From Bacilli bacterium (GTDB taxonomy: Bacteria > Bacillota_I > Bacilli_A > RF39 > UBA660): 64,000 nucleotides of DNA. A model generated the notes under the pieces. It did not search any database and was not told where the DNA came from. It worked only from the letters and a program-made list of their open reading frames with translations. Shown here one piece after another: positions 2,275 to 55,244 of this stretch. The translations under genes were made by a program, and so were the position numbers. The first letter of the stretch is position 1; the number at the start of each line of letters is the position of its first letter. The stretch covers positions 20,962 to 84,961 of the forward strand of contig JAZQNW010000006.1 of assembly GCA_045627525.1 (NCBI GenBank), written 5' to 3'.

Positions 2275-2296
2275 TATTAAATTTATAGGAGGACAT

Positions 2297-2803: not shown

Positions 2804-2809
2804 AATTAA

Positions 2810-2834
2810 GAAATGGTTAGGCCATTTCTTTTTT
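2810..2834 (+). terminator. Rho-independent terminator
   Basis: GAAATGG-ttagg-CCATTTC hairpin followed by a T6 run, directly after the 2803 stop. Confidence 0.7.
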
Positions 2835-2906
2835 ATATATTTTTTAATTTAACTTTTAATTTTTTTTATTATGATGTATAATTTTATTAGAATAGGTGTG
2901 GTGGAT

Positions 2907-6584: not shown

Positions 6585-6585
6585 T

Positions 6586-7125: not shown

Positions 7126-7132
7126 TATTTAA

Positions 7133-7157
7133 GAAATGGGTAACCATTTCTTTTTTT
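7133..7157 (+). terminator. Rho-independent terminator
   Basis: GAAATGG-gtaa-CCATTTC hairpin followed by a T7 run, almost identical to the 2810..2834 terminator. Confidence 0.7.
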
Positions 7158-19173: not shown

Positions 19174-19249
19174 TAATGGATTTTATTGTTCCTTTTTTTT
19201 ATTATTTATTGTATAATTATTATAAGGTAGAGTAGTAGGGGTGCTAGTT

Positions 19250-20923
19250 ATGTCTGATAATAAAGCTTTAGATATTATTTTTAGCAAAATTAATAATGTT
19301 CTTACAGATATATCAAGAAAAGTATCTTTTATTGAAAAGTCTGAGAAGTTATTAGATTATGAATCAGAGATATTGAGAGTATCAGAAAGTGATATTCTTC
19401 TTTTGGCACGCTATTATTTTGAACTAAATAATAGTGATAAAAGTAAATTTAGAGATTTAGCGGTAAACATCATGGGAAGTGACGATGTAGTTAATCATTG
19501 TTTAAACTTATATTATTTAGATAAAAAGGATTTAACAACTGTTTCACAATATAGTTTTGAAAGTAAGGAATTGGAGAAGTTTAGAAAACTTTTACAAGAA
19601 GATGAAAGAAGATTACAAAAATTAATTGAAGATAGACCAATAGAAAGTTTAAGAGCAAAAAGAAAAAGAATTCTTGATTTATCATCTTATTTATCAGGAT
19701 CAAATTTTGAAATAGATGATGTTGATGATTTTTTACATATACTTGATTATATTAATTTTACCTCAAAAGAAAAGACTTATGTTTTAACTAGAATTTTTAA
19801 TGGTAGCGTTAAATTTTATAAAAGAATGGTTAATAATTATGAAAAATCAAAAGTTTCACCAAAGTTATTAGCTAGTCATAGCAATGTATCTTTAATAGGT
19901 AATAATAATGTTATATTACCTAATAAAATATATAATTCTTTAATTAATAATTTTGATAATTTAAGTATTATTGATAGAGTATTAGAAAAATATAATTTAT
20001 CTTATTGTATTTCTATTAATAATGATAATTCTGCTGATATTTTGGATTTAGCTATAGAAGAAGCTAATAAATTAGCAATAAATATGGTTAGAACTAATGA
20101 TTTTTCAGAATTTAAATTATTTGATGATGGTATTTTAGTTAAAAAATTCAAATTAAGTGAATTTGTTATTGAAAATATTGATAGAGCATATGAATTTTTT
20201 AAAAAGAATAAAAATATTATTGAAAAAATGGAATTGGCTGATAGGGAAAATAGTGAAGATATTTTAAATAACCTTAAAGGTAAAAAATGGGATGAGGTTA
20301 GGGAATTTTTAGATTCTATTTATGGTCATGAGTTTGATAGTTATTTTTTACTAGAAGTATTAAAAAGGTTATGTCTTATTATAGAATTAGATTATTTGGA
20401 TTTTAGTCAACAAGACTTTTTAGATGAGCTAGAAAATTGCTGTGTTGATTTAAAAATTATGCTTGATTATTATGAAAAAGAAATTAATCCTGAAGATACA
20501 TTAAGTATTGAATATCCATATTTATATTTATATAAAGGGAATAAAGCTTGTTTTGAACAAGATATTTTAAATATTCCAGCTGATTTTTATGGCGAATTAT
20601 ATGAAGTTCTTTCAGAAATAAGAACTGAGAGAGCAACAGGTACTGATTTTGATATTGTATTAGAAAATAAAATAAATTTACGAGTGTCTGAAAATATAAA
20701 TGTATATTATATTCCATTTGATAGTTTTATTTTATTAATAGGTGTATTTGTTGTTGGTGATAAGGATTCCTATGCTGTTATTGATAATAGAAAAACTGCT
20801 ATTTTAAATATAATTGATTCTATAAATGATTATAGTGAACAAAAAATTAACAATTTGATTTCAAATGACAAAAAAGTTACTGATAGGATATTAAGTTTTT
20901 TAGATAATAATAGAATAGTTTAA
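19250..20923 (+). CDS. Hypothetical protein, ~557 aa, acidic and alpha-helical
   Basis: Long ORF with an AGGGGTG RBS; no motif I recognise. Confidence 0.5.
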   Translation: MSDNKALDIIFSKINNVLTDISRKVSFIEKSEKLLDYESEILRVSESDILLLARYYFELNNSDKSKFRDLAVNIMGSDDVVNHCLNLYYLDKKDLTTVSQYSFESKELEKFRKLLQEDERRLQKLIEDRPIESLRAKRKRILDLSSYLSGSNFEIDDVDDFLHILDYINFTSKEKTYVLTRIFNGSVKFYKRMVNNYEKSKVSPKLLASHSNVSLIGNNNVILPNKIYNSLINNFDNLSIIDRVLEKYNLSYCISINNDNSADILDLAIEEANKLAINMVRTNDFSEFKLFDDGILVKKFKLSEFVIENIDRAYEFFKKNKNIIEKMELADRENSEDILNNLKGKKWDEVREFLDSIYGHEFDSYFLLEVLKRLCLIIELDYLDFSQQDFLDELENCCVDLKIMLDYYEKEINPEDTLSIEYPYLYLYKGNKACFEQDILNIPADFYGELYEVLSEIRTERATGTDFDIVLENKINLRVSENINVYYIPFDSFILLIGVFVVGDKDSYAVIDNRKTAILNIIDSINDYSEQKINNLISNDKKVTDRILSFLDNNRIV

Positions 20924-20934
20924 GGGGTGAAGAT

Positions 20935-22707
20935 ATGGTTTCACAAAATAGTTTAATTAATTTACTACGTGATAATATAACTAGAAAAAAAGAATTAATT
21001 AATGAATATTATCATTATCAAGATTCTTCACTTTCTTATAAGGAGGAACTAGAAAAGAAATTAACGAGAGAAATATGGAAAATAGCTTTAGTAGATTTTA
21101 AAAGAATTGAAGAAATTATTTCTAATTTTGATATAAGTGATTTGGAAAAAGAAAATATTATTAATCCTTTAAATGATGCTTGTAAAATATTAGAGATAAA
21201 TTATAATGAGGGTACTACATTAGAGTTAGATAATACGCAGCTAATTGCTATTAATAGTTTTATAAATAATTTAAGAGAATATATTAGTAGTCGTAAGAAT
21301 TATTTTTTAAATCATGATTATGATATTAAAAAATTAGAAAAATTAACTGATAAGTATAAGAAATTAGTTACTTCTTTGAAAAATCCTAATAATAAGGAAT
21401 TTATTTCTGATTATGATGTGTTAAAATGTTTATTTAATGAGACTAAAATTTCTGAGGAAGCTAAACAAAATATTTTGATTATGCTTATTAAATATAATAA
21501 AAGAATTTATGATTATAGAATGGGCAGGGGTCCTCTTTTAGAAGTAGATAATTATATTAATTTAACTGAAGAAAGAATAAGTGATTTGTTTAAAAAATTT
21601 GGATATAATTTTTTAGATTTAAATGATCAAGAAAAAAGATGGATAATAGATAATGGCTATTTTGAAATAGCAGATTCAGTATTTAAAACATTAAGAGATA
21701 ATAATTTTCCTAATATAGATTTAGTAACTAATGGTCATGTTCTTACATCTTTAATTTTAGGCAGCAATAGAAGTGTAATTGAAAATAGTCTTGCACTGGG
21801 AAATAAATATGGTTTAAGTGCTAGTCAATTATTACAAATAAGTAGTTGTTTAATTGAACCACAAGAGTTAAATACTGATAATAAATTAAAACCTTATATT
21901 GTTGGTAGATCTACAGATTTTATTTTAAATTTAGATTTATTTGATAGATATGGATTATCAGCTAAGTATGTTTTTAATAGATGTAGGGAATTACTTACAT
22001 TTCCTAATCACATATTAGTTAGAAATTTAGAAATATTTATGCAATATGATTTTAAGTTTAATAAAAGAAGAAATACTTTAATTGATTCTAGTTTGGTTGC
22101 TTTAATGAATCCTAATTTTGATGTTATTGTTGATCAATTTATGGAAACTCATCCTGCTGGTTTTAAGTATATTAAAGATAATTTATGTGCTTTAAGAACT
22201 TATACTGATCCATTTGATAGTGTTTTTTATAGTTTATATCAGGCTAGTCACTCTAAAGATGAAGTTGTTGCTTTTAGATTAATTGAAACGGGAAACATTA
22301 ATAAGATTTGTTTAATGGGTAATATGTCTGATAATAGTGATAATTATTTTGGTATTAATGATGATAATAAGAGGGAAGTTACTGCTGCTATAATTCCACA
22401 TTTTAATAAAAAAGGGGAATATATATCGGCTTTAGAAAATGCACAATGTGTAGAAATTGATAATGATATTTTCGATAATCCGTTTATTTTAAAATTAAAT
22501 GAATATTCAACAATAGATCCGCTTTTATATTATTTTGATGGAATTAGAATATCAAAATTGAAAGTTCTTAGAATATTTGGAACACTTATAAACAATGGAA
22601 TAGTTCCAGATGAAGATAGTTTACTATTTTCTGTTACTTATAATTCTATTATTAATCAAGAGGAATTTGATAAAATTGCTTTAATAATAAAAGAGGTGGT
22701 ACAGTAA
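20935..22707 (+). CDS. Hypothetical protein, 590 aa
   Basis: Long ORF with an AAGGGGTGAAG RBS, in an operon with 19250 and 22707; no motif I recognise. Confidence 0.5.
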   Translation: MVSQNSLINLLRDNITRKKELINEYYHYQDSSLSYKEELEKKLTREIWKIALVDFKRIEEIISNFDISDLEKENIINPLNDACKILEINYNEGTTLELDNTQLIAINSFINNLREYISSRKNYFLNHDYDIKKLEKLTDKYKKLVTSLKNPNNKEFISDYDVLKCLFNETKISEEAKQNILIMLIKYNKRIYDYRMGRGPLLEVDNYINLTEERISDLFKKFGYNFLDLNDQEKRWIIDNGYFEIADSVFKTLRDNNFPNIDLVTNGHVLTSLILGSNRSVIENSLALGNKYGLSASQLLQISSCLIEPQELNTDNKLKPYIVGRSTDFILNLDLFDRYGLSAKYVFNRCRELLTFPNHILVRNLEIFMQYDFKFNKRRNTLIDSSLVALMNPNFDVIVDQFMETHPAGFKYIKDNLCALRTYTDPFDSVFYSLYQASHSKDEVVAFRLIETGNINKICLMGNMSDNSDNYFGINDDNKREVTAAIIPHFNKKGEYISALENAQCVEIDNDIFDNPFILKLNEYSTIDPLLYYFDGIRISKLKVLRIFGTLINNGIVPDEDSLLFSVTYNSIINQEEFDKIALIIKEVVQ

Positions 22708-26696: not shown

Positions 26697-26773
26697 GTCT
26701 TCGTAGCTCAGTTGGATAGAGCAATCGCCTCCTAAGCGATAGGTCGGCAGTTCAAATCTGCCCGAGGACACCA
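26697..26773 (+). tRNA. tRNA-Arg (anticodon CCT)
   Basis: Cloverleaf traced by hand: acceptor GTCTTCG/CGAGGAC, D-arm GCTC...GAGC, anticodon stem ATCGC/GCGAT with loop CTCCTAA, T-arm GGCAG-TTCAAAT-CTGCC, 3' ACCA. Confidence 0.85.
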
Positions 26774-28940: not shown

Positions 28941-29017
28941 GGCGATGTAGCTCAGCTGGCTAGAGCGTCCGGTTCATACCCGGAAGGTCGGGGGTTCAAT
29001 TCCCTCCGTCGCTACCA
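28941..29017 (+). tRNA. tRNA-Met (anticodon CAT), elongator-like
   Basis: GGCGATG acceptor, D-arm GCTCAGCTGGCTAGAGC, anticodon stem TCCGG/CCGGA with loop TTCATAC, T-arm GGGGG-TTCAATT-CCCTC, 3' ACCA. Sequence alone cannot exclude tRNA-Ile2 (lysidine). Confidence 0.8.
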
Positions 29018-31263: not shown

Positions 31264-31338
31264 TGCCCCATAGCCAAGTGGTAAGGCAGTGCGCTCTGAC
31301 CGCACGACGCGTTAGTTCGAATCTAACTGGGGCAGCCA
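31264..31338 (+). tRNA. tRNA-Gln (anticodon CTG)
   Basis: U1-A72 acceptor (TGCCCCA/TGGGGCA), 3-bp D-stem, anticodon stem GTGCG/CGCAC with loop CTCTGAC, T-arm GTTAG-TTCGAAT-CTAAC, 3' GCCA. Confidence 0.85.
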
Positions 31339-31371: not shown

Positions 31372-33030
31372 ATGAATAAAGAAGAAAGAATTGAATTAGC
31401 TAATTTGTTGTTTCCTAATATAGATAAAGATAGAGAATACTTTGAAAAAATGTATCCTAAGAGAAATTTGCCAGAAGGTGCGATGGTTACTAGATTTGGT
31501 CCTAGTCCTACTGGTTTTGTACATATGGGTAGTTTATTTGGTGCATTTATTGATAGTGTTTATGCAAGACAAAGTAATGGTGTTTTCTTTTTGAGAATAG
31601 AAGATACTGATGCTAAAAGAACTGTTGAAAATGGAGTTGAAGGTATTTTTAATGATTTGGACAGTTTTGGTATTTATCCTAATGAATCTACTAAGAATGG
31701 TGGGAATTATGGGCCATATATTCAAAGCGAAAGAGTAGAAATTTATCAAACTTATGTTAAAGATATGATTATTAATGGTATTGCTTATCCATGCTTTATG
31801 ACTGAAGAAGAACTTGCATCAATTCGTGAAGAACAAGAAATTAATAAAGTTAGAACAGGTGTGTATGGAATTTATGCAGCTGATAGAGATTTATCATTAG
31901 CTGAAGTTAAAGAAAAAATTTCAAATGGTGAAGAATATGTCATAAGATTAAGAAGTGATGGAGATCCAAATAAAACTATAGAATTTACTGATTTAATTAA
32001 GGGAAAAATGAAATTTCCTGAAAATGATGAAGATTTTGTGGTTTTAAAGAAAGATGGTGTTCCTACATATCATTTTGCTCATGCAATTGATGATCATTTA
32101 ATGCATACTACACATGTTATTAGAGCGGATGAATGGGTTTCAAGTATTCCAAAACATGTTCAATTATTTAAAATGCTAGGATTTGAAAGACCTGAATTTT
32201 GTCATCATGCACCAATTACTAAAAAAGATGAAGAAACTGGTACTATTAGAAAATTATCAAAAAGAAAAGATAAGGAAGCAGCTGTTTCTTATTATGATGA
32301 AGCTGGAATTCCAGTAGATGCAGTTAAACTATATTTAGCTACTATATTAAATAGTAATTTTGAAGAATGGTATTTACAAAATTCTGATAAAAGTTATGAA
32401 GAATTTACATTTACTTTTGATAAGATGGCTGTTGGTGGAACAAGTTTTGATTTAGAAAAATTGACTAATATTTCTAAAACATATTTTTCACGTAAAAGTG
32501 GTGAAGATGTATTTAATGAAACTTATTCTTGGGCTTTAAAACATGACTTGGATTATGCTAAATTGTTGGAAGATAATAAAAATGATATGATTAAATTTTT
32601 GAGTATTGAAAAAGATGGAGCACGTCCTAGAAAAGATATATCTAAATATAGTGATGTAAAAGAAGAATTTAGTTATGCAATTGATTCAATGTTTTATAAT
32701 GAAAAGTATTCTAAATATGATGGTAATAAGAAATATGATAGTGAATTAATAACAGAATATATATCTAACATTGATTTAACTTTGACTAATGAGGAATGGT
32801 TTAATGGAGTAAAGGATTTTGCAGTTAAAAATGGATATGCTGCTAGTCCTAAGGAATATAAGAATAGTCCAGATGATTATAAAGGACATGTAGGTGATAT
32901 TTGTGAGGCACTACGTGTTATGATTACTGGTAGAACAAAATCTCCTGATTTATTTTCAATCATGAAAGTTTTAGGTAAAGATAAAATAATGGAGAGAATT
33001 AATTTTTATAAAGAGACTATTGAATATTAA
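31372..33030 (+). CDS. gltX: Glutamate--tRNA ligase, class I
   Basis: HIGH-type motif in RFGPSPTGFVHMGS and a KLSKR (KMSKS-type) motif; 552 aa. The tRNA-Gln gene sits directly upstream. Confidence 0.8.
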   Translation: MNKEERIELANLLFPNIDKDREYFEKMYPKRNLPEGAMVTRFGPSPTGFVHMGSLFGAFIDSVYARQSNGVFFLRIEDTDAKRTVENGVEGIFNDLDSFGIYPNESTKNGGNYGPYIQSERVEIYQTYVKDMIINGIAYPCFMTEEELASIREEQEINKVRTGVYGIYAADRDLSLAEVKEKISNGEEYVIRLRSDGDPNKTIEFTDLIKGKMKFPENDEDFVVLKKDGVPTYHFAHAIDDHLMHTTHVIRADEWVSSIPKHVQLFKMLGFERPEFCHHAPITKKDEETGTIRKLSKRKDKEAAVSYYDEAGIPVDAVKLYLATILNSNFEEWYLQNSDKSYEEFTFTFDKMAVGGTSFDLEKLTNISKTYFSRKSGEDVFNETYSWALKHDLDYAKLLEDNKNDMIKFLSIEKDGARPRKDISKYSDVKEEFSYAIDSMFYNEKYSKYDGNKKYDSELITEYISNIDLTLTNEEWFNGVKDFAVKNGYAASPKEYKNSPDDYKGHVGDICEALRVMITGRTKSPDLFSIMKVLGKDKIMERINFYKETIEY

Positions 33031-33031
33031 A

Positions 33032-33050
33032 AAGGCTTTGGCCTTTTTTT
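33032..33050 (+). terminator. Rho-independent terminator
   Basis: AAAGGC-tttg-GCCTTT hairpin followed by a T7 run. Confidence 0.7.
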
Positions 33051-33099: not shown

Positions 33100-34644
33100 A
33101 TGACAAATAAAGAAGCAAAAAAGAAAGTTGATTATGTATTATTAAATTCTTCAGCGACTATTGAAGATTATAATAAATTAGAAAAATTTTTGTTTTGGTA
33201 TAAATATCAAAATGAGGAGTTTGCTTATAAATCTCTTGCTAGATTGTATTTAAAATTAGATGAGATTAGTAATGCCAAGAAATATGCTATGAAATGCTTG
33301 GAAGTTAATGATAAATGCCTTTCTGCTTATAATTTGCTATATAGAATTTTTACATCAGAAGAAAATTATGAAGAAGCATTAAAAAGCTTAAAAATATACA
33401 AGAAATTATCAGAAGATATAGGTAAAAATAATAATTATGATTTAGCCATTATTATGTTAGAGGCTTTATCTGATATGAAAAAAGATTATACTAAAAGTTT
33501 AAATATATCATATGAAATGGAATGTCCAACTATTTTTGGTAATTATGAAATAGATGATATAATTGTTGAAGGATTATACGAAGATGCTTTTAAATGTTTA
33601 GCAAATAGAAATTATAGGGAATTAAAAAAAGATTTAATGGGCATTAATCAATTATGTTTGAGACATAATTATTCTATGAATGTTGTTCCTTTAATTAGTG
33701 TATCTGAAGCATTAATTAAAAGAGAAGAAGAATGTGTTAGCAATAAAATATATAATAAAGAATATGATTTTTTAGAAGAATATGATGTTAGTGTAGATAC
33801 TGTTAAAGATAGTTATGTTGATGAAAAGTTGACATTAGGTAGTTTACTTGATTATATTGATATATTAATATCAACAAATTTTTCTAAAGCGTGTAATCTC
33901 TTTTCTGCAGTAGAAGATTATTTACCTGTTGATGATAGAATTAAATTGGTAAAGGGAAAAATTAATGAAAAATTATTACTTGCTAATTTAGATGATGAAA
34001 ATAAAGATATTTATAATAGATGCCTAAAAAATGGAAGAGAATTATGTTTAAAATATAATTTTAATGATGCATTGGAAAATTTTATGATGGGATTTAATAT
34101 TACGGAACATCCAATATTTAAATATTATATTGGTAAAGCATATTTTAAAGCTCATAATTATGATATGGCTTGTAAATATTTTGAGTCTTATATAGATGAT
34201 GGTGGAGCTAAATTAAATAAGGCATATTTTTATATGTCAGTTATTTCTGCTAAAAGCAATGATAAACATAATATGGTTAAATATAATAGTAAAATTAAAG
34301 AACTTAGTATGACGTTTAATTCTGAAAAAGAATTTAAATGTCCTTCTTATAATTTTAAAAGTAATAGTCTTTATTTTCAGAAAAAGAGGACTAGTCAAAA
34401 GTTAAAACAACAAAATATTAAATTTGTTAATTTGGATGATATAACTGAAAAAATTATAGGTTTACCTTTTGATGAGAAACTTAAAATTACTAGATCTTAT
34501 TATGAACAAGGACAGATTGCTGTTGGAGATAGGTTAATTAAGGAATTAGAAACCCTTACTGCTAATAATCCAAAAGATAGGTCCAAAGTTAATAAAGAAA
34601 AAGGAAAAAGAATGATCTATTTAAAGAATAAACACAATGCATAA
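33100..34644 (+). CDS. Hypothetical TPR-like helical-repeat protein, paralogue A (514 aa)
   Basis: Paralogous to 34701 and 35654 in both N-terminal and C-terminal regions (HPIFKYYIGKAYFKAHNY...FESYIDDGG versus HPLFKFYIGKTFYELKNY...FESYYEFGG). Basic C-terminal tail. Confidence 0.5.
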   Translation: MTNKEAKKKVDYVLLNSSATIEDYNKLEKFLFWYKYQNEEFAYKSLARLYLKLDEISNAKKYAMKCLEVNDKCLSAYNLLYRIFTSEENYEEALKSLKIYKKLSEDIGKNNNYDLAIIMLEALSDMKKDYTKSLNISYEMECPTIFGNYEIDDIIVEGLYEDAFKCLANRNYRELKKDLMGINQLCLRHNYSMNVVPLISVSEALIKREEECVSNKIYNKEYDFLEEYDVSVDTVKDSYVDEKLTLGSLLDYIDILISTNFSKACNLFSAVEDYLPVDDRIKLVKGKINEKLLLANLDDENKDIYNRCLKNGRELCLKYNFNDALENFMMGFNITEHPIFKYYIGKAYFKAHNYDMACKYFESYIDDGGAKLNKAYFYMSVISAKSNDKHNMVKYNSKIKELSMTFNSEKEFKCPSYNFKSNSLYFQKKRTSQKLKQQNIKFVNLDDITEKIIGLPFDEKLKITRSYYEQGQIAVGDRLIKELETLTANNPKDRSKVNKEKGKRMIYLKNKHNA

Positions 34645-35591: not shown

Positions 35592-35653
35592 CTTTTTTCT
35601 TGAAAAAAATATATAAATGTGTTATTATATACGGCAACGAAATGAGGGGTAAT

Positions 35654-36976
35654 ATGTTGAGTAGAAAAGAAAATGATTTTATACAGAGATTTTTAAAAAG
35701 TAGAGATCATTCAGAAGCGGAATACAACTGTGTAGATCAAAAAATCGAATCTATTAAGGAAGAACAAAATAGTTATTATTATGTTCTTAAAACTAAAATG
35801 TTAAATACTAGAGGTAAATATTCAGAAGCTATAGAATTAGCTAATGAGGGTTTGGAAAAATATCCTGGACATTATTTAATTTATTATAATAAGTTTACAA
35901 CTTGTGTTATGTTAGGAGACTATGAAGCGGCATATAATAATTTTTCTAAATATAAAACTTTATTAACTACTAGATTTGGGTGTCAAGAAACTGTTAACTT
36001 AAGTTTACCTCTTGAACTTTTAAGAATGGCGAAGGATATAAAGTCTGATCCGGCTAATTTTTCATTTGAAGGTTATCAAGCTGAATATACTGATTCTTTT
36101 GCAAATTATACTTTATCTGATTCTATGATGTTAGATCATTATTATGATGCGATTAAGGCATTTAATAGTGGTATGTTTGAAGAATTAGGAGATATTTTAA
36201 ATTCTTTGCAAAGTGATTTTGATATTTTTAATTTACCAATTGAAATTAATAGCTTGAAACCTGTTGTGGCATTTATTAGAGAATTTAAAGAGGATAACAA
36301 GTATGATGATATTTTAAATTATAATTGGAATACTGGAAGTATATTGGATTTTAGTAATTTAGTAAAGAGTGCTATTGATGAAGGAAAAGAAGTAGATCAA
36401 GTTGTAATTCAAAATATTAGTCAATTAAGTTCTACTGATCATAAAAAAGCAAATAAAGCTTTACGTAGTATTTTCGATATTTGTTGTACAGAAGATAATT
36501 ATGATGAATATAGTGATTTATACTATAAAATAAAAGAAGATAAAATTTATAGTAAGTTGGATGAAATTAGCAAAAAAATTTATGACAGTTATCTTCAAAA
36601 TGGTGTTAAAGCTTTAGATGATGAAGATTATGATGTTGCTAGAGGATATTTTCAAGCTGGTTATTATACTACTTTTCATCCATTATTTAAATTTTATATA
36701 GGAAAAACGTTTTATGAATTAAAAAATTATGGTGTAGCTGAAGAATTTTTTGAATCATATTATGAATTTGGTGGTAGTAAGGGAACAGAAGCTAAGCATT
36801 ATCTTACATTAATTGAAAGTTCTCATGAAAAAGAATTAGAAACATATGCTAAAAATGGTGTTAGTGCTATTGATGAAATGATGTCAACAATTCAAAAAAC
36901 TCCTGATGTTGTTTCTTGGAATGATGAACCTGAATTTACTTTATCTAAAGTTATTTCTAGTAAAAAACTTGCTTAA
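35654..36976 (+). CDS. Hypothetical TPR-like helical-repeat protein, paralogue C (~440 aa)
   Basis: Shares its C-terminal domain with paralogue A. ATG 35654 follows a GAGGGG RBS; the ORF opens at 35600. Confidence 0.5.
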   Translation: MLSRKENDFIQRFLKSRDHSEAEYNCVDQKIESIKEEQNSYYYVLKTKMLNTRGKYSEAIELANEGLEKYPGHYLIYYNKFTTCVMLGDYEAAYNNFSKYKTLLTTRFGCQETVNLSLPLELLRMAKDIKSDPANFSFEGYQAEYTDSFANYTLSDSMMLDHYYDAIKAFNSGMFEELGDILNSLQSDFDIFNLPIEINSLKPVVAFIREFKEDNKYDDILNYNWNTGSILDFSNLVKSAIDEGKEVDQVVIQNISQLSSTDHKKANKALRSIFDICCTEDNYDEYSDLYYKIKEDKIYSKLDEISKKIYDSYLQNGVKALDDEDYDVARGYFQAGYYTTFHPLFKFYIGKTFYELKNYGVAEEFFESYYEFGGSKGTEAKHYLTLIESSHEKELETYAKNGVSAIDEMMSTIQKTPDVVSWNDEPEFTLSKVISSKKLA

Positions 36977-36992
36977 AAAAAGTTTCTATAAA

Positions 36993-37020
36993 AGAAGACT
37001 CAAAAGTCTTCTTTTTTCTT
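36993..37020 (+). terminator. Rho-independent terminator
   Basis: AAGAAGACT-caaa-AGTCTTCTT hairpin followed by a T run. Confidence 0.7.
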
Positions 37021-40406: not shown

Positions 40407-41735
40407 ATGAGAGAAATTAAAAGTATAACAATTGTTACAGAGGAAGATGAATTTTTACCTAAGAAATTTGCCTATATTGTGTATGATAATGAAAAAGACA
40501 GACTTTGTACTTATAATGATTTAGTTAAAGAATTAGCAAAATATAAAAAAGGTGGAAGTATCTTTGGTACTAGAAATTTAGATGGTATTAAAAAGAGAAA
40601 TTTGACTTTTAAAGAATTACAATATAGGGAATATGGACTTTATGAAAGAGTTAGAAATTTAAGATATGAATTAGAAAATGAAAAGGATAAAAGCAGCAGA
40701 CAATTATCTAAAAAATATGATATAAATTTAGGTGATTTACCTAATATGTATTATATAGAGAGAAGTCATTTTTCTTATGATTGGGCTGGCCAATTTATGG
40801 CTACTATGAATAATTATAAAAAGTTAAAAGATTTAGTTTTAAATGAATGCAAACAAAGTGATATTAAATATAGAGAAGATACAGATTTAATTATTAGAGA
40901 AGCCGTTGATAAGATTGCTGAGGACTTAGTTGGCAATGCATTAGATGGCTGTCATAGTAGGCAGGAAATGTATATGATGCTTGAAGATAAAAAAAGTAAT
41001 TGTAAAACGCCTAGAGAAATGGAAGCTTTATCAAATATGATTGAATGTGATAGAAGATTTATGATTTTTTATCCAGCAACATTTTTTAAGAATTCTAGTG
41101 AATTGTTAGAAGTAATTGATGATAAAACTTATTGTGATAGAGAAGAGCTATTAAGCAAATGGGCAGAATTTTTGATCGTTTTACCAGAATATTGTGGTAT
41201 GTTACAAACATTAGAAAATTTTACTAGTGATATTTATGAAAAGAGTACGCAAGAAAGATTAGAATCATATTATGAAAATCAATCCTTTATTAATGATGTT
41301 ATAATGTTAATGGATCATGATAAGGGCCAAGAAATTTATCATTATCATGCTACTACAAGTAAAAAAGCAGCAGATAATATTTTGGATAAGGGATTATTTC
41401 TTATGAGTGGTGATTTAAGCTCTACAGCTTTTACTGAATTTAATTTAGATGATGTTTTAACTTATCAATATCAAGGCTCTGGACTATTTGATACAGTTGG
41501 TGATTATGTTGTTGTTATTAGACAACCAGATGGCGAAGATATTATTAGACCTACTACTGATTTAGAAAAAGAAAATAACAATATCATGGCTAGAAGAATG
41601 GGGGTAAATACAGCTGTTAATTCATATGTAATAGATTCATCAAATATTGTTGGTTATATTGATAAAGTTAGTCAGAATGTTGTTAAGAATGAAAAATTTG
41701 TTAAAAATCCAAAAATAGAAAGTGGACAGAAATAG
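40407..41735 (+). CDS. Hypothetical protein, 442 aa
   Basis: Long ORF with a GGAATGG RBS; unknown family. Confidence 0.45.
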
Positions 41736-46353: not shown

Positions 46354-46398
46354 TACTTAAAACGACAGATAAGTCGTTTTTTTATTTGTATATTTATT

Positions 46399-48535: not shown

Positions 48536-49098
48536 ATGTATAAATTTTCTAATATTTTTGGATTATAGTTTTTTAAATCATTTATATTTTCTTCTGGTAT
48601 TAATATTTTATATGTAATGTTGTTATTAAAGGATTTACTAACTATTTTATAATTATTAAGAGTATATTCTAGGGTTTTTTGATTATCATAAGTAGTAGTT
48701 ATTTCAATTAAATAACCCTTTATTACTTCAATAACATTTGAAATGCTTAATGTTTCTTGTAATGATTTTGTATATGCTCTTACTAGGCCACCAGTACCTA
48801 ATTTAATACCGCCAAAGTAACGAACTGTTATTACTAATATATTAATTAATTCTTCTTTAATTAATATATTTAACATTGGAAGACCAGCTGTTCCACCTGG
48901 TTCACCATCATCACTTGATTTTTGATAATTTTCTAATATATAGGCATAACAGTAATGAGTAGCTTTTGGATAAAGAGTTTTAACATTATTTAATTTTTCC
49001 TTTATTTCTTCTAAATTATTTACTTTGTATATTAATGTTATAAATTTAGAATTTTTAATTATAATTTCACTTTTATAATTTTCCTTTACAGTTTTCAT
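48517..49098 (-). CDS. yigZ: IMPACT/YigZ family protein
   Basis: GEPGGTAGLPML...RYFGGIKLGTGGLVRAY signature. Confidence 0.85.
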   Translation of the reverse strand: MKTVKENYKSEIIIKNSKFITLIYKVNNLEEIKEKLNNVKTLYPKATHYCYAYILENYQKSSDDGEPGGTAGLPMLNILIKEELINILVITVRYFGGIKLGTGGLVRAYTKSLQETLSISNVIEVIKGYLIEITTTYDNQKTLEYTLNNYKIVSKSFNNNITYKILIPEENINDLKNYNPKILENLYIEKKEH

Positions 49099-49177
49099 GT
49101 AATCACCTAAATTTATTATACGTTATTTTATAGTTTATTTCTAGTTACTATGTTATAATTAATATGGAGGTTAGTGT

Positions 49178-50320
49178 ATGAAAAGAAATAATAAAGATCA
49201 GGGTGTTGATTATTCAAGCCTTAATGAAATATTATCTACGGGTAGCAAATTAGTACATATTGTTTATGTAGTAACAATTATAGTATTAATATTATTAGGT
49301 ACTTATCTATTAAGAGAATGGAAAATATTAGATCTTTTAGGAAAATTATTAGTTGTAATTTCACCAATATTTATTGGTATTATTATTGCTTGGTTATTTG
49401 ATCCTTTGGTTAGATGGCTACAAACAAAAAAAATACCAAGAATAGCTGGTTGTATTATTATATATCTTTTTTTGATAGGATTAATATTTTTAGTTTTATA
49501 TGCATTTTTTCCAATGCTTATAGGACAAGTTACTGATTTTATTGGTACTATCCCAGATTTATTAAAAGAGTTAAGACAATTTGCTGATAAGTTCTTCTCA
49601 TCTGTTCAAACTAGTGAATTTAATGTTGATAGTATTAAGAATGGTTTTTACAATTCGATGGAGACATTTGGAGCTAACTTGACTACGGATTTACCTAATA
49701 AGTTAATAAATGCTGGTAAGGCATTAATTAGTGGTGGAGCTAATTTTGTATTAGGACTTATGATAGGTTTTTATATGTTATTTGACTTTGATAAACTAAA
49801 TAAGAAAATTTTAAAATGTATTCCAAAAAGTTGGAAAGCTAATTATAAGGAATTAGCATCTAGATTAAATACTTCTTTAAGAAATTATGTTCAAGGTGTT
49901 TTCTTAATTATGTTTTTAGTGTTTGTTACACAAAGTATAGGACTTACAATAGCTGGTTTAAAGGCACCATTAGTATTTGCATTGTTCTGTGCTATTACTG
50001 ATATTATTCCATATTTTGGTCCATATATTGGAGCTATTCCTGCTGTGTTAGTTGGATTTACAATTTCACCAGCAACTGGAATATTCTGTATTATTTCTAT
50101 AGTTATTGTTCAAGTATTAGAAAATAATTTTTATCAACCATTAATTATGGGACACACTATGCAATTACATCCTGTTACTATTATGGTTGGACTATTGATT
50201 TTTGGGCATTTCTTTGGTATATTAGGTATGGTACTAGCAACACCTATAGTTGCTTGTATTAAAATTGTATTTATGTTTATTAATGAAAAATTGCATTTTA
50301 TGGAAGCAATTACTAAGTAA
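49178..50320 (+). CDS. AI-2E family transporter (UPF0118 / PerM-like permease)
   Basis: Eight hydrophobic helices and a conserved C-terminal region (ISPATGIF...VQVLENNFYQPLIMG...LHPVTIMVGLLIFGHFFGILGMVLATPI). Confidence 0.8.
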   Translation: MKRNNKDQGVDYSSLNEILSTGSKLVHIVYVVTIIVLILLGTYLLREWKILDLLGKLLVVISPIFIGIIIAWLFDPLVRWLQTKKIPRIAGCIIIYLFLIGLIFLVLYAFFPMLIGQVTDFIGTIPDLLKELRQFADKFFSSVQTSEFNVDSIKNGFYNSMETFGANLTTDLPNKLINAGKALISGGANFVLGLMIGFYMLFDFDKLNKKILKCIPKSWKANYKELASRLNTSLRNYVQGVFLIMFLVFVTQSIGLTIAGLKAPLVFALFCAITDIIPYFGPYIGAIPAVLVGFTISPATGIFCIISIVIVQVLENNFYQPLIMGHTMQLHPVTIMVGLLIFGHFFGILGMVLATPIVACIKIVFMFINEKLHFMEAITK

Positions 50321-50518
50321 TAAAATGTTGACTGAAGACGAGTATTAAGATAATTATTTTTTAGAGAGTTAGTGTTTGGTGTAAACTAATATATAATTCT
50401 TAAGAAGCTACTTCACGAGTTTTATCGGGATGACCGTTATGAAAATTAAGACCTAGATAGGATGGTACCGGACTTTGTCCTCCTATTGTAGGTCTTTTGT
50501 TTGTTTTAAGGAGGATTT
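50321..50518 (+). promoter_or_regulatory. Structured 5' leader with a T-box-like antiterminator module (helix, 7-nt UGGUACC bulge, helix) inside a long hairpin followed by a U-rich tract; candidate tRNA-responsive (Ala?) riboregulator
   Basis: TTGACT at 50328 with TAATTA 17 nt downstream is a plausible promoter. 50458-50470 reads ATAGGATGGTACC (T-box consensus AGGGUGGNACC), then GGAC-UUU-GUCC, then UCCUAU closing the first helix. The helix extends to ~14 bp (AGACCUAGAUAGGA / UCCUAUUGUAGGUCU with one bulged G) and is followed by UUUUGUUUGUUUU. GAAGCUA at 50423-50429 is a candidate GCU (Ala) specifier. UCCUCCU at 50478-50484 could alternatively pair with the AGGAGGA Shine-Dalgarno at 50509. Confidence 0.4.
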
Positions 50519-51067
50519 ATGAGGATAATTATCATTGGTGGGGCGGCTGGAAGTGGTAAGAATACTTTGGGAATATTATTAAAAGAACAACTTCAGGAAT
50601 ATGGCTATAAACCTTGTGTTATGAGACTAACTGAGACTTTATATTCATATGCTAAAAATTATTTTAATTGGAATGAATGCGAAGAGAAGCCACGTGAGTT
50701 TTTGCAAAAAATGGGTATTGAAATAATTAAAGAAAAATTAAATAAAAAGACTTTCTTAATAGATAGAACAATGGAAGATATAGAAATACTTAGTGAATTT
50801 TTTGATACTTTTATTATTACTGATGCTAGATTAAAAGAAGAATTTATTGAATTTGATAGAAGATTTAGTGATGTAACAAAAATACTTTTATTTAGAGAAA
50901 ATTATGATAATGGATTAGATGAGTCGTTGAGAAATCATATTACAGAAAAAGATTTGAATGACTTTGATGATTTTGATTATAAAATAAAAAATACTGATAT
51001 AGACGAGCTTCGTGAAGAAGCTAAATATATTGTTAAGCATTTAGAAAGAGGTGGAAATAATGAATAA
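50519..51067 (+). CDS. P-loop nucleotide kinase, dNMP-kinase-like
   Basis: MRIIIIGGAAGSGKNTLG Walker A at the very N-terminus; ~180 aa; architecture resembles phage-type deoxynucleotide monophosphate kinases. Confidence 0.5.
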   Translation: MRIIIIGGAAGSGKNTLGILLKEQLQEYGYKPCVMRLTETLYSYAKNYFNWNECEEKPREFLQKMGIEIIKEKLNKKTFLIDRTMEDIEILSEFFDTFIITDARLKEEFIEFDRRFSDVTKILLFRENYDNGLDESLRNHITEKDLNDFDDFDYKIKNTDIDELREEAKYIVKHLERGGNNE

Positions 51068-51620
51068 ATTAATAGCAGTAGTAGGAATGGCAGGTAGTGG
51101 TAAATCTGTTGCGACTGATTATTTAGAGAATGAAGGATGGAGGAAGATTTATTTTGGAGGAGTCGTTTTAGATAAACTTAAAGAAAATAATTTAGAAGAT
51201 ACACCAGCCAATGAAAAAATGATGCGTGAAAAATTAAGAAAAGATTATGGTATGGCTGCGATGGCTGTTGTTTTATTACCTAAAATAGAGGAATCTATTA
51301 AGAATAATAATACTATTTTAGATGGTTTATATTCATGGGATGAATATGTAGTTTTACATGAAAAATTTGGTGATAAATTAAAATTAATTTGTGTAGTTTG
51401 CGATAAAGACATAAGACATGAAAGAATTGCGAATAGACCAAATAGACCTTTTAATAAAGAAGAAATTGATATAAGAGATACATCTGAAATTGAAAATTTA
51501 GCTAAGGGTGGTCCTATTGCTTATGCAGATTATTATATATTTAATAATGGGACAGTTGATGATTATGAAAAAAGATTATTAGAAATATTAGATGATATAG
51601 ATAAACATGAAGGGAAGTAA
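51060..51620 (+). CDS. P-loop nucleotide kinase, dNMP-kinase-like (second tandem copy)
   Basis: KLIAVVGMAGSGKSVATDYLENEGW N-terminal Walker A and the same size class. ATG 51060 follows a GAGGTGG RBS. Confidence 0.5.
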   Translation: MNKLIAVVGMAGSGKSVATDYLENEGWRKIYFGGVVLDKLKENNLEDTPANEKMMREKLRKDYGMAAMAVVLLPKIEESIKNNNTILDGLYSWDEYVVLHEKFGDKLKLICVVCDKDIRHERIANRPNRPFNKEEIDIRDTSEIENLAKGGPIAYADYYIFNNGTVDDYEKRLLEILDDIDKHEGK

Positions 51621-51625
51621 TATAT

Positions 51626-54319
51626 ATGAAGTATATGAGTCATGATGATATAAGAAATACATGGTTTAGATTTTTTGAAGAAAAAAAGCATAAGAGAATT
51701 GAAAGTGCTTCATTGATACCAGTTGATGATGATAGTTTGTTATGGGTTAATGCTGGAGTTACACCATTAAAAAAATATTTTGATGGTTCTATAGTTCCAG
51801 AATCTAGAAGAATGGTTGATATTCAAAAATGTATTAGAACAAATGATATTGATAATGTGGGTGTTACAAAAAGACATCAAACATTTTTTGAGATGATGGG
51901 TAATTTTTCAGTTGGAGATTATTTTAAAGATGAAGCTATTGCTTATTCTTGGGAATTATTAACTAGTGATAAATATTTTGGCATTGATAAGAATTTATTA
52001 TATGTTACAATTTATCCTACTGATGAGGAAGCAAGAAAAAAATGGATTGAAGTTGGAATGATTGAAGATCACATTGTACCATTAGAAGAAAATTTTTGGG
52101 AAATTGGTGAAGGGCCTTGTGGTCCAGACTCCGAACTTTTTTATGACAGAGGAGAAAAATATGATCCAGATGGTGATGCATTAGAAAAGTTTAAAAAAGA
52201 TGAGGATCAAGAAAGATATATTGAAATTTGGAACAATGTATTTAGTCAATATAATTCTAAAGCAGGTAAAAAACGTAGTGAATATGAAGAATTGCCTAGT
52301 AAGAATATTGATACGGGTGCTGGCTTGGAAAGATGGTGTTGTATATTTCAAAATGCTGATAGTAGTTTTGAAACAGATTTATTTCAACCTATTATTAGAC
52401 ATATAGAAGAATTAGCAGGGGCTTTATATTGTGGCCAAAAGGAATATAAAATAATTGCTGATCATATTAGAGCTATTACTTTTGCTTTGGCAGATGGTGC
52501 TTCTTTTGAAAATGTTGGTCGTGGATATGTTCTTAGAAGACTTTTAAGACGAAGTGTTAGAGTTGGGAAACAATTAGAACTAGAATGTCCATTTATGTAT
52601 AAACTTGTTTCTGATGTTGTTGATGTTATGAAAGATGCTTATCCATACTTAGTTGAAAAAAGACCTTTTATTGAAACTATAGTTTTAGAAGAAGAAAAAT
52701 TATTTTTGAAGACTTTGGATGCTGGAGAAAGACGTTTAAGACAAGTTGTAAAAAATTCAAATGATGGTGTTATTAGTGGCGAAGAAGCTTTCAAATTATA
52801 TGATACTTATGGTTTTCCATTTGAATTAACTTTAGAATATTTGAATGAACTTGGCTATACTGTTTCTAAGGAAGAATTTGATAAATATATGAACATTCAA
52901 AAAGAAACTGCTAGAAAAAATACTAAAAATATTAGTGCTATGGCTAGTCAAAAAAAGGTATTATTAGAGTTTAAAGACAAAAGTCAATTTGCTTATGGAA
53001 TATATAGATTAAAGAGTCATGTTATTGCTATTTTCTCAAAAGATGAAATAGTTTCTAAATTGACTCATGATGGATATATAGCTTTAGATAGAACTTGTTT
53101 TTATGCTGAGGCAGGTGGGCAAGTAAGTGATACTGGTATGATTATTGGTAAAACATTTAAAGCTAGAGTTTTGGATGTATTTAAAGCTCCAAATGGTCAA
53201 CATATACATAAGGTAAAACTTTTAGATGGAGTAATTAATGCTTCAGATGAATGTGAACTTGTAATTGATAAAGATAGACGAAGAAAAATAGAAAATAATC
53301 ATTCTAGTGTTCATATTCTTCAATATGCTTTGCAACAAGTTATATCAAATAATATTAAACAAGCTGGTAGTTATGTTGATGATGAAAAATTAAGATTTGA
53401 TTTTACTTATTCTGGAAAAATTACTGATGATATATTAGTAGAAGTTGAAAAGTATGTTAATAATATGATTGATAAGCAACTAATAGTTTCTACTGAAGTT
53501 ATGCCATTAGATAAGGCTAAAAAAATGGGAGCTATGGCTTTATTTGATGAAAAATATGGTGATAATGTTAGAGTTGTAAAAATTGGTAAATCTATGGAAC
53601 TATGTGGTGGTACCCATACTTCTAATACAAAAGAAATTGGTCGTTTTGCGATTTATTCATGGGAATCTAAAGGAAGTAATATTTATAGAGTAGAAGCTGC
53701 TACTGGTTCTAGAATTGAAAGAGTTATGTTAGAGGTTGCAAAACCATATAATGATGAATTAATAAAATTATTAGTAAAAGCTAAAAATATTTTAGATATG
53801 GCTAAATCAGAGAAGATAAAATTAAATTTTGATATTGATATTCAAAATAAAAAGATTAATTCATATAAAGATTTAATAATTAGTAAAAATGAACTTTTAT
53901 ATGTTCAACAAGAAGTAAGAGATTTAGAAAAAAAATTCAATTCTTTAAGGGAACAAAAGTCTTTACAAAATTTAGATGAATATGAAAAAAATGTAAAAGA
54001 TTATAATGGAACATTAGGTTTAATTATGAAAGTTGAAAATAAAGATTCTAATCTTTTAAAAGCTATTGCTGATTCTTTGATTCAAATTATGGGTAATGGT
54101 TTAGTATTCTTCGCAAATGTAAAAGATAATAATAGCATTAACTTTATTTGTCGTAGTAATTGTCATGTTAATGCTGAAATGGCTATTAAAAGTGCTTCTA
54201 TTATGGCTGATGGTAATGGTGGAGGAAGTCCAACTTTTGCTCAAGGTGGAGGAAAAGACATTAATAAATTAGACGAAATATTTGAACATATTGGAAAGAT
54301 GATTTATGACGAAAAGTAA
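51626..54319 (+). CDS. alaS: Alanine--tRNA ligase
   Basis: Class II AlaRS N-terminus (FRFFEEKKHKRIESASLIP...LLWVNAGV), an editing domain with HSSVH / CGGTH zinc motifs and a C-terminal DHHA1 domain; 897 aa. Confidence 0.93.
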   Translation: MKYMSHDDIRNTWFRFFEEKKHKRIESASLIPVDDDSLLWVNAGVTPLKKYFDGSIVPESRRMVDIQKCIRTNDIDNVGVTKRHQTFFEMMGNFSVGDYFKDEAIAYSWELLTSDKYFGIDKNLLYVTIYPTDEEARKKWIEVGMIEDHIVPLEENFWEIGEGPCGPDSELFYDRGEKYDPDGDALEKFKKDEDQERYIEIWNNVFSQYNSKAGKKRSEYEELPSKNIDTGAGLERWCCIFQNADSSFETDLFQPIIRHIEELAGALYCGQKEYKIIADHIRAITFALADGASFENVGRGYVLRRLLRRSVRVGKQLELECPFMYKLVSDVVDVMKDAYPYLVEKRPFIETIVLEEEKLFLKTLDAGERRLRQVVKNSNDGVISGEEAFKLYDTYGFPFELTLEYLNELGYTVSKEEFDKYMNIQKETARKNTKNISAMASQKKVLLEFKDKSQFAYGIYRLKSHVIAIFSKDEIVSKLTHDGYIALDRTCFYAEAGGQVSDTGMIIGKTFKARVLDVFKAPNGQHIHKVKLLDGVINASDECELVIDKDRRRKIENNHSSVHILQYALQQVISNNIKQAGSYVDDEKLRFDFTYSGKITDDILVEVEKYVNNMIDKQLIVSTEVMPLDKAKKMGAMALFDEKYGDNVRVVKIGKSMELCGGTHTSNTKEIGRFAIYSWESKGSNIYRVEAATGSRIERVMLEVAKPYNDELIKLLVKAKNILDMAKSEKIKLNFDIDIQNKKINSYKDLIISKNELLYVQQEVRDLEKKFNSLREQKSLQNLDEYEKNVKDYNGTLGLIMKVENKDSNLLKAIADSLIQIMGNGLVFFANVKDNNSINFICRSNCHVNAEMAIKSASIMADGNGGGSPTFAQGGGKDINKLDEIFEHIGKMIYDEK

Positions 54320-55244
54320 TTATTTAGTAGAAGGCAATGATTTCATATCTGTTCAAAATGTTATAAAAGATCTTATAATTAAAAATAATTTTAGTGGTGT
54401 AGATATTAATTCTTATGATATGGATGATGTTTCTTTAGATTTAGCTTTAGAAGATTTAGATACTTATGGTTTGTTTTCTAATAAAAAGATAATTATTATA
54501 AATAATATTGAATCTATTAATCAGGAAGAAAATAAAAAAAATATTGATCATTTATATCAATATTTGGATAATGCTAGTGGTGATAATTTATTAATAATTT
54601 GTAGTAAAAAATTAAATAATACTTTAAAATTTACTAAAGAATTAAAGAAACGCTTAGAATATGTTAAAGCTGAATTAAATAGTTTGGAATTTATAAAAGC
54701 AGAATTAAAAGATTATAAATTAGATCCAGGAGTTTCTAATTTGATATTAGAGTATTGTGGTGATGATATTACTAAAATTTTAAATGAATGTTTAAAGTTA
54801 AAAAACTATAAATTGAAAGATAAAAAAATATCTAAAAATGATATTAGTGATATTTGTATAAAAAAATTAGGTGATCCTACTGAATTAACGTTTGCTTTTA
54901 GTAGATCTTTAGCTGAACGAAATAAGAAAGAGGCATTATTAAAATATCATGAATTATTAGATTATAATGTTGAGCCTCTTGGTATAATAGGTCTTTTAGC
55001 AAGTCAAATAAGAATTATTTATCAAGTTAAAATATTATTAGATGAAGGAATGTCAAAAGATGAAATAGCTAATCAGTTGGATGTTAAGGCTTTTAGAATT
55101 ACAAAGACTATGGAATTATTAAAGTATTATTCTTCTAAAGAATTATTGAATTTATTAGTTAAATTACAAAAGATAGATTTACAAATAAAAACAACTAATG
55201 TTGATGCTAATCATTTGATAGAAATGTTTATTTTAAATATTTAA
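54306..55244 (+). CDS. holA: DNA polymerase III delta subunit
   Basis: YLVEGNDFIS... N-terminus and LFSNKKIIIINN box; 312 aa. The start overlaps the alaS stop by 14 nt. Confidence 0.7.
   Translation: MTKSNYLVEGNDFISVQNVIKDLIIKNNFSGVDINSYDMDDVSLDLALEDLDTYGLFSNKKIIIINNIESINQEENKKNIDHLYQYLDNASGDNLLIICSKKLNNTLKFTKELKKRLEYVKAELNSLEFIKAELKDYKLDPGVSNLILEYCGDDITKILNECLKLKNYKLKDKKISKNDISDICIKKLGDPTELTFAFSRSLAERNKKEALLKYHELLDYNVEPLGIIGLLASQIRIIYQVKILLDEGMSKDEIANQLDVKAFRITKTMELLKYYSSKELLNLLVKLQKIDLQIKTTNVDANHLIEMFILNI

Follow-up and report, generated by a model that had tools for sequence, protein, structure and literature searches.

The subject of this report is an RNA leader that lies between a transporter gene and the alanyl-tRNA synthetase operon of a Bacilli bacterium (GTDB lineage Bacteria; Bacillota_I; Bacilli_A; RF39; UBA660). 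It was studied in a stretch of 64,000 nucleotides, referred to here as the window, which comprises positions 20,962 to 84,961 of the forward strand of contig JAZQNW010000006.1 (assembly GCA_045627525.1) and is chromosomal DNA of a low-GC bacterium. We interpret the leader as a T-box, a member of the textbook class of tRNA-sensing riboswitches, which responds to tRNA-Ala, has lost parts of the usual discriminator, and carries its antiterminator inside a terminator-shaped hairpin.

Results

Gene content of the locus

The gene upstream of the leader encodes an AI-2E family transporter (49178..50320; Pfam PF01594, E=3e-67) and ends with a stop codon at 50318-50320. Downstream is an operon of overlapping or abutting open reading frames (ORFs; 50519..55244), the first of which starts with an ATG at 50519-50521. 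Operon gene 1 (50519-51067) encodes a DNMK-like P-loop protein, which has a weak match to PF21448 and no assignment in NCBIfam, and gene 2 (51051-51620) an AdkA-like/UPF0200 kinase-like protein (PDB 3lw7 and 3h0k, E~5e-13). They are followed by alaS (51626-54319) and holA (54306-55244), both recognised from their ORFs and Pfam. All of these genes, like all parts of the leader described below, are on the plus strand. An earlier note on this DNA, made from the sequence alone, had placed alaS at 51626, as we also find.

The related loci considered throughout are those of the 80 closest AlaS relatives (70-77% identity), which come from gut metagenome-assembled genomes labelled Bacilli, Tenericutes, Mycoplasma sp. 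CAG:877 or Erysipelotrichaceae. There too, operon gene 1 follows the leader, and 74 of 76 loci have an AI-2E homolog upstream in the same orientation, which in 56 cases ends at a distance of less than 50 nt from the leader. In the window the transporter stop codon abuts the leader, since it lies inside a conserved AUAAAA at the leader 5' end (window 50318-50331). No conserved promoter is visible between transporter gene and leader in the abutting loci, the window included, and no other terminator was found after the transporter gene. Given the abutting stop codon and the lack of a visible conserved promoter, the window leader is probably reached by read-through from the transporter gene; as no other terminator follows, the hairpin of the leader probably also ends the transporter transcript. 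The earlier note had allowed that this hairpin might be simply the terminator of the upstream transporter gene. The terminator role probably stands, given that no other terminator follows, while the word "simply" is contradicted by the invariant tRNA-binding motifs reported below.

About 18 loci have a gap of 75-190 nt between the two, and in these a strong TG-extended promoter, TTGAAT-17-TAAAAT, is found ~30-40 nt before the AGUA motif of Stem I. As a separate observation, this element is usually TG-extended (TGTTAAAAT), lies ~30-45 nt upstream of AGUA, is absent from the window locus, and was recorded in loci L016, L017, L031, L043, L045, L049, L058, L060, L065, L066, L068, L069, L070, L073 and L075. 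It may also be mentioned that the transporter stop codon is ~5 nt ahead of the first Stem I pair, so that a ribosome terminating there would lie over the K-turn strand of Stem I; stop codon and leader abut in this way in 56 related loci as well. Finally, two P-loop kinase-like genes stand between the alanine T-box and alaS (50519-51620, and orthologous positions in L001-L080), with the exception of L052, L054, L071, L072, L076 and L077, where a single gene intervenes. By its position, the leader would place the two kinase-like genes and holA under tRNA-Ala control together with alaS.

Identity and specificity of the leader

The Rfam T-box model (RF00230) aligns over its full length (model 1-219) to window positions 50319-50487 on the plus strand, with 80.3 bits and an E-value of 5e-18 in a local scan or 9.2e-16 when the entire 64-kb window is searched. 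Such a covariance-model scan had been named as a check in the earlier note, which had proposed a T-box-like antiterminator at this place, and its outcome is a significant full-length match, even though the score falls below the gathering score of 93. For this reason a default Rfam scan of the window reports three tRNAs and no T-box, which is a threshold artefact. The low score is explained by the deletion of the Stem II and Stem III modules, and it is shared by the relatives: six related leaders score 79.2-90.5 bits (E<=1.6e-15), and among 14 representative loci not one reaches the gathering score. The whole clade thus has a genuine T-box that lies systematically under the Rfam threshold. Thermodynamics alone would not have flagged it, as the fold z-score of the whole leader is an unremarkable -1.3. 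A second T-box turned up neither in the window nor in any of the 80 related loci. The minus strand of the same region (50383-50510) gives a weak match to L10_leader (RF00557) of 25.1 bits, where the gathering score is 44 (E=0.03); this match most likely arises by chance from the hairpin and the U/A tract.

According to the Rfam alignment, Stem I occupies 50325..50420, with 50325-26 pairing with 50419-20 and a helix of 50333-36 with 50412-15. It carries the S-turn AGUA (50341-44), the AG bulge AGAGA (50363-67) and the distal loop GGUG (50378-81). The 3' side of the specifier loop (50404..50410) consists of the GAA of the S-turn, the specifier GCU (50407-50409) and a 3' purine, A. A small Stem IIA-like hairpin, CGG..CCG (50426-50436), and the nearly invariant F-box CCGUUA (50434-50439) follow, both placed by the same alignment. 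The antiterminator (50457..50486) is built of helix A1 (AUAGGA, 50457-50462, with UCCUAU, 50481-50486), the 7-nt T-box bulge UGGUACC (50463-50469) and helix A2 (GGAC-UUU-GUCC, 50470-50480). Around it is an outer helix, which we call P0, with its 5' arm AAGACCUA at 50448-50455, where AAGAC aligns to the RRRNG purine string of the model, and its 3' arm UAGGUCUU at 50489-50496. A U-rich tract, UUGUUUGUUUU (50497-50507), and the Shine-Dalgarno (SD) sequence AGGAGGA (50509-50515) of the first operon gene complete the leader; the SD is complementary to UCCUCCU at 50478-50484, hereafter the anti-SD strand.

Several of these elements had been anticipated. The antiterminator fold described in the earlier note (AUAGGA/UCCUAU, bulge UGGUACC, GGAC-UUU-GUCC) is present in the sequence in all its parts. 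Its T-box motif ATAGGATGGTACC exists as well, at 50457-50469 and not at 50458-50470, an error of 1, and the GAAGCUA that it read as an alanine specifier is indeed the specifier, at 50404-50410 and not at 50423-50429, an error of 19.

In the 77 leaders that were aligned, the specifier codon is GCU in 73 and GCA in four, both of which encode alanine. The base after the specifier is C in four leaders and A in the window. The UGGU of the bulge is complementary to the ACCA 3' end expected of tRNA-Ala, for which an A73 discriminator base is likewise expected. Since a GCU/GCA specifier, a UGGU bulge and an alaS gene within the operon occur together, we have very little doubt, from what can be read in the sequence, that the leader is an alanine-specific T-box. 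Its Stem I, with the GCU specifier, is the predicted reader of the anticodon and elbow of tRNA-Ala.

Conservation and covariation

A search with the window leader (nhmmer) detected the leader in 77 of the 80 AlaS loci. At L034, one of these, it is cut by the contig end, at L059 a truncated copy was seen in a motif scan, and the last two loci have too little upstream DNA; the leader is therefore present at every related locus having sufficient sequence upstream of the operon. The Rfam-derived structure and the outer helix were mapped onto an alignment of the 77 complete leaders (labelled A1, and distinct from the helix of that name), to which the counts given below refer.

The motifs AGUA, AGAGA, GGUG, GAAGC, CCGUUA, AGGAUGGUACCG and CUCCU are invariant or nearly so, and AGGA-UGGUACC-G is unchanged throughout. 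Pairing is found in 94.1% of cells, as against 78.9% in shuffled alignments, and the covariation score is 0.436, as against 0.163, a value exceeded by none of 500 shuffles and falling to 0.12 or less once the partners are slid by 1-3 columns. Compensatory changes occur in all five helices of Stem I, in which 83-100% of cells pair. Helix A2 also covaries (one of its pairs is GC in 53 leaders, UA in 16 and AU in 5), and helix A1 is invariant. Covariation among orthologous leaders, another check named in the earlier note, thus comes out in favour of the T-box, in that Stem I and A2 covary and the invariant motifs of Stem I and specifier are retained.

Missing discriminator modules

Between Stem I and the antiterminator the leader is strongly reduced. 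Stem II is absent, as model positions ~106-132 are deleted and Stem I is followed after only 5 nt by the IIA-like hairpin. The latter is kept, its three base pairs being formed in 93% of cases across the 77 leaders, and the F-box next to it is nearly invariant. Natural T-boxes lacking Stem II are already known, namely glyQS and some alaS leaders (PMC4695836).

The 19-20 nt from the F-box to A1 cannot form a hairpin. What remains there are the purines that flank Stem III in other T-boxes: in the Rfam alignment AAGAC corresponds to AAGuG of the model and AG to AA, with only C(N) in between, so that the window retains AAGAC-C-AA. In the 68 leaders of the main group, defined below, the region reads AA(UU)AAG(A/G)CC-AA-NN-UAGGAUGGUACC, in which the flanks appear as AAG(A/G)C-C-AA. 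According to the structural literature, the purines of RRRNG-Stem III-AA line the minor grooves of A1, of the duplex between NCCA and bulge, and of A2, and are needed for tRNA binding (PMC7583486; PMC7778990). A phrase search of the searchable literature found no description of a T-box without Stem III. We also scanned metagenomes with the pattern CCGTTAN{8,28}GGNTGGVACC for T-boxes of this kind with other specificities, and nearly all matches were due to chance; among 120 stretches a single one resembled a T-box, and it had the canonical form.

A further change concerns the base of A2. In canonical T-boxes a G.U wobble at this position is the steric sensor of aminoacylation, and G.U is the consensus of RF00230. 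All 77 leaders have a G-C pair there (alignment columns 185/202).

A probable terminator hairpin in two architectures

The antiterminator is enclosed by the only terminator-shaped hairpin of the leader (50448-50496, with the U-tract at 50497-50507). In 68 of the 77 leaders, the window included, P0 (AAGACC/GGUCUU) extends A1 and is followed by UUUUAUUUG; we refer to these leaders as the main group. In their minimum free energy (MFE) folds, the 7-nt bulge is left unpaired within the long hairpin. The nested hairpin of the window has -18.8 kcal/mol, or -19.8 at the MFE (overall range -18.8 to -21.1), and UUUUGUUUGUUUU follows it. The antiterminator alone accounts for only a part of this, -7.1 kcal/mol with a 6-bp A1 and -4.7 with a 4-bp A1, and P0 with the joining pairs contributes about -11 to -12 kcal/mol.

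The stretch GGUCUUUUAUUUG is conserved in the main group, and the linker between P0 and A1 varies in sequence with its complementarity kept, for example as AGCUAGGA/UCCUAGCU or AGUUAGGA/UCCUAACU. When the 3' linkers are swapped between species, the mean energy weakens from -18.8 to -16.7 kcal/mol, and not one of 2000 permutations matches the native set; the continuous long helix across the joint of P0 and A1 is therefore under selection. P0 itself is almost invariant. All 68 leaders have AAG(A/G)CC, and the only changes are from A to G, which preserve a G.U pair. This near-invariance, unlike the free covariation of Stem I and of the linker, suggests a sequence-specific role of P0 beyond pairing. 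The earlier note had described an antiterminator module sitting on top of a terminator-like stem, and this description holds for the 68 main-group leaders, whose joining segment of helix covaries.

The remaining nine leaders (L038, L058, L060, L065, L066, L068, L069, L073 and L075) form a divergent group. Here a 3' arm such as GGUAUCAUCC, followed by U7-8, has as its partner the T-box sequence GGAUGGUACC together with the A-rich region upstream of it. In L060 the resulting terminator has 12-14 bp, with the A2 hairpin in its loop. As modelled, the terminator of the divergent group is truly mutually exclusive with tRNA binding, and its 5' arm is supplied by the antiterminator 5' side; in canonical T-boxes the terminator 5' arm is the antiterminator 3' side (PMC7583486). 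Neither arrangement is thus canonical, which bears out the suggestion of the earlier note that this could be a noncanonical variant. The note had not remarked on the divergent group, nor on the missing Stem III or the G-C pair at the base of A2.

We looked for other competing structures in the window leader. There is no canonical terminator, that is, no pairing of the A1/A2 3' strands with downstream sequence ahead of a run of U's, as their sole complement is the SD, which has no U-tract. A 4-bp mini-hairpin CCUA/UAGG present in the window is not conserved, and pairing of the main-group 3' arm with the bulge, of the kind seen in the divergent group, is limited to ACC/GGU (3 bp). A simple terminator scan of 49000-52000 flagged nothing, because its loop limit of 3-8 nt makes it miss the nested hairpin. 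Gene-end terminators of the window, for example those at 2808-2830, 7131-7152, 33029-33048, 36990-37015 and 46359-46380 (the last with the tail TTTATTTGTA), share one form, in which a short stem containing some three G-C pairs stands between an A-tract and a U-tract. The leader hairpin, which lies 128 nt past the transporter stop codon, matches this form.

Other features of the window

Some features away from the leader deserve mention. A diverged direct duplication of ~2.8 kb covers window positions 5-2830 and ~4060-7152, with 81-93% identity in blocks of 300 nt and a spacing of ~4055-4320. Within it a 754-aa ORF (10-2274) resembles the C-terminal part of a 1237-aa ORF (2871-6584), and behind each of the two come a 179-aa ORF and a terminator, AAGAAATGG...CCATTTCTT, which is nearly the same in both copies (2808-2830 and 7131-7152).

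Three single tRNA genes are scattered ~2.3 kb apart, Arg-CCT (26697-26773), Met-CAT (28941-29017) and Gln-CTG (31264-31338), with strong TG-extended promoter-like sites ahead of two of them (24926 and 28895; TTGAAA-17-TATAAT). The tRNA-Gln gene lies 33 nt upstream of a class I tRNA synthetase gene of the Glu/Gln type (31372-33030), which is without a T-box. No Pfam match at E<=1e-5 was obtained for five ORFs of 440-590 aa (19241-22707, 33100-34644, 35600-36976, 40407-41735).

Discussion

Our comparison places the leader in a known family; what differs is its architecture, with a nested terminator and a reduced discriminator. Because the hairpin fits the terminators of this genome, and the divergent group has plain U7-8 tracts, the sequence points to termination at hairpin 50448-50496 and its U-tract as the step on which the leader probably acts. 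Overall, the explanation that we find best is a transcriptional-class alanine T-box in reduced form, a reading that we favour with some reserve.

How such a leader might switch can be proposed as follows. Transcripts would enter from the AI-2E transporter gene and, by default, stop at the nested hairpin. Once uncharged tRNA-Ala is bound, the purine string AAGAC..AA would dock on the minor grooves of A1, of the duplex between NCCA and bulge, and of A2. A purine strand docked in this way cannot also extend A1 as P0; the 5' arm of P0 would be withheld, the basal pairs beside the U-tract would be kept from closing, and RNA polymerase would run on into the kinase-kinase-alaS-holA operon. In the divergent leaders, where the A-rich 5' region and the T-box sequence together make up the terminator 5' arm, competition with the tRNA would be direct, and the purine region would serve as a toehold for invasion by the 3' arm. 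Common to both architectures, as far as the sequences suggest, would be a terminator whose basal 5' arm is the purine-rich region matching the flanks of Stem III. Competition for the purine string, which we propose by analogy with the docked purines of solved T-box complexes, is a tentative choice of mechanism. We are equally cautious about its corollary, a possible discriminator that has neither a Stem III hairpin nor a G.U sensor and in which the switch is between docking of the purine string and a Watson-Crick terminator arm.

Several points weigh against this proposal. A Stem III hairpin, described as indispensable in glyQS, is absent from the leader, which has 2 nt where RF00230 has a 19-nt insert, and a 2020 review of T-box structures counts Stem III, together with the purines that flank it, as an integral and indispensable part of the discriminator (PMC7583486). 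The RRRNG-like motif ends in C rather than G. With G-C in place of the G.U sensor, sensing of aminoacylation may work differently, and where both Stem III and that sensor are missing the discriminator may work differently altogether. In the main group, folding models give no mutually exclusive alternative at the level of secondary structure alone, because tRNA binding needs A1 and P0 extends A1. Tertiary docking would have to beat 6-8 Watson-Crick pairs that are worth ~-11 kcal/mol and need no nucleation step. Moreover, the covariation controls are only partly free of phylogenetic relatedness, and a tRNA-Ala gene was found neither in the 64-kb window nor in a tRNA search of 60 related loci, which returned no tRNA genes.

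The main rival is that P0 is a clamp which replaces Stem III and is present in the tRNA-bound state, so that the regulated step would be another one, for instance pausing, access for RNase, or mRNA stability at the junction of transporter and operon. P0 stacks on A1 and would lengthen the 'central spine' of tRNA-bound T-boxes (PMC7583486), the antiterminator without P0 is weak (-4.7 to -7.1 kcal/mol), and with Stem III missing some replacement for it is plausible. We nevertheless consider a clamp unlikely. A stable hairpin followed by UUUUAUUUG has the form of this genome's gene-end terminators, the plain and mutually exclusive U7-8 terminators of the divergent group argue that the clade regulates termination, and no alternative OFF structure is conserved.

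Alternatively, the leader could be a translational T-box, in which the long hairpin is the anti-sequestrator and in which, without uncharged tRNA, the anti-SD strand UCCUCCU (50478-50484) masks the SD at 50509-50515. The earlier note had pointed to this pairing, and the complementarity does exist in the window, over 7-8 bp. In many leaders a block of the 5' strand lets the 3' strand fold onto the region of the SD (mean -11.6 kcal/mol), and in L005, L007 and L008 an 11-bp complementarity reaches past the SD core. The translational reading of it is not supported, however: the anti-SD strand pairs with its own SD at -10.05 kcal/mol and with the SDs of 294 other genes of the same loci at -9.51 (p=0.06), a value near background because any SD pairs with a strand that contains CCUCC. 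A forced sequestrator in the window reaches -10.3 kcal/mol, ~8.5 weaker than the nested hairpin (-18.8), and we know of nothing that would keep the 5' strand away for sequestration to take place. Many leaders retain only CUCCU. A long and complete Stem I, such as this leader has, is missing from most translational T-boxes (PMC7583486), and both the conserved U-tract and the divergent group's U7-8 terminators indicate termination, not sequestration. SD sequestration is thus unsupported as a mechanism of the whole family, where we regard it as quite improbable, and may make a minor contribution in a few leaders (L005, L007, L008).

A third possibility is that the logic is inverted, with tRNA stabilising A1, A1 nucleating the enclosing terminator, and uncharged tRNA-Ala causing more termination. 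Although this is what the nested secondary structure directly predicts at face value, it would be physiologically senseless for an alaS operon, it conflicts with the divergent leaders, in which tRNA and terminator compete for the bulge, and with every characterised T-box (PMC7583486), so that we find it very hard to accept. Least credible of all is the view that the hairpin serves the AI-2E transporter gene as an intrinsic terminator and does nothing else, the T-box likeness being a decaying relic with no tRNA function: the transporter stop abutting the leader, the lack of another terminator after that gene and an Rfam score under the gathering cut-off would agree with it, but no tRNA-contacting motif varies among 77 species that have only 70-77% identity in AlaS, Stem I covaries, the specifier stays alanine through a change from GCU to GCA, purifying selection on specifier and bulge is seen here, and the 11 nt between U-tract and SD leave no space for a promoter of the operon's own.

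If the purine-string reading is correct, it would add a third logic of T-box expression platforms, beside the canonical terminator and the SD sequestrator, one that would be conserved throughout a large uncultured lineage of the gut and would escape annotation at the Rfam threshold. T-boxes serve as an antibiotic target and as a source of parts for RNA engineering. Structural work holds two elements to be essential for sensing aminoacylation, Stem III and the basal G.U wobble of A2, and here a leader with neither is found in ~80 species, a natural test case for the minimal requirements of a T-box. Switching is usually viewed as the exchange of the A1/A2 3' strands into the terminator, and the nested layout may reveal a different principle. 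Whatever the mechanism, regulation of alaS in this gut clade of reduced genomes goes unannotated at the Rfam gathering cut-off.

Comparison with known T-boxes

Alanine T-boxes with a GCU specifier and a UGGU bulge have been established experimentally in the alaS leaders of Clostridium acetobutylicum and B. subtilis, and alaS leaders include deletion variants, such as that of C. acetobutylicum, which is without Stem II and IIA/B (PMC4695836). The present leader shares with them the GCU specifier, the match of the UGGU bulge to ACCA, alaS as the gene under control, and a Stem I that bears a GA motif, an S-turn, an AG bulge and a distal loop. It is without Stem II but retains the IIA-like hairpin and the F-box, in contrast to C. 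acetobutylicum. In the known alaS leaders Stem III is kept and the terminator is canonical, its 5' arm being the antiterminator 3' side, whereas the present leader has neither; in 68 leaders the terminator is wrapped around the antiterminator, and in 9 leaders it pairs with the T-box sequence. Unlike the known leaders, it precedes two kinase-like genes and not alaS directly.

With the tyrS and glyQS leaders of B. subtilis, as represented in RF00230, it has in common a full-length alignment to the model, all the boxes of primary sequence, a long Stem I, and a terminator-like hairpin with a U-tract ahead of the regulated genes. It departs from them in its scores below the gathering cut-off (79-90 bits in the seven leaders tested), in the absence of both Stem II and Stem III, in the G-C instead of G.U at the base of A2, and in an A1 of AGGA/UCCU instead of GGG(U)/CCC. 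In the main group, moreover, terminator and antiterminator are not mutually exclusive in secondary structure.

The class II ileS T-boxes of Mycobacterium tuberculosis and Nocardia farcinica resemble it in that the 3' strand of A1/A2 is complementary to the SD. Those leaders usually have a truncated Stem I and a Stem II domain, with the SD sequestrator as their sole OFF structure, whereas the present one has a long Stem I, a conserved terminator with U-tract, and an SD complementarity at background level. For its position inside a transcription unit, the closest parallel is the internal T-box of gltX-cysE-cysS in B. subtilis, which has a standard architecture, lies in an intergenic spacer between genes, and uses its terminator as a conditional gate. 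Gating of transcripts that come from an upstream promoter would be shared by the two, with the difference that here the stop codon of the preceding gene abuts Stem I.

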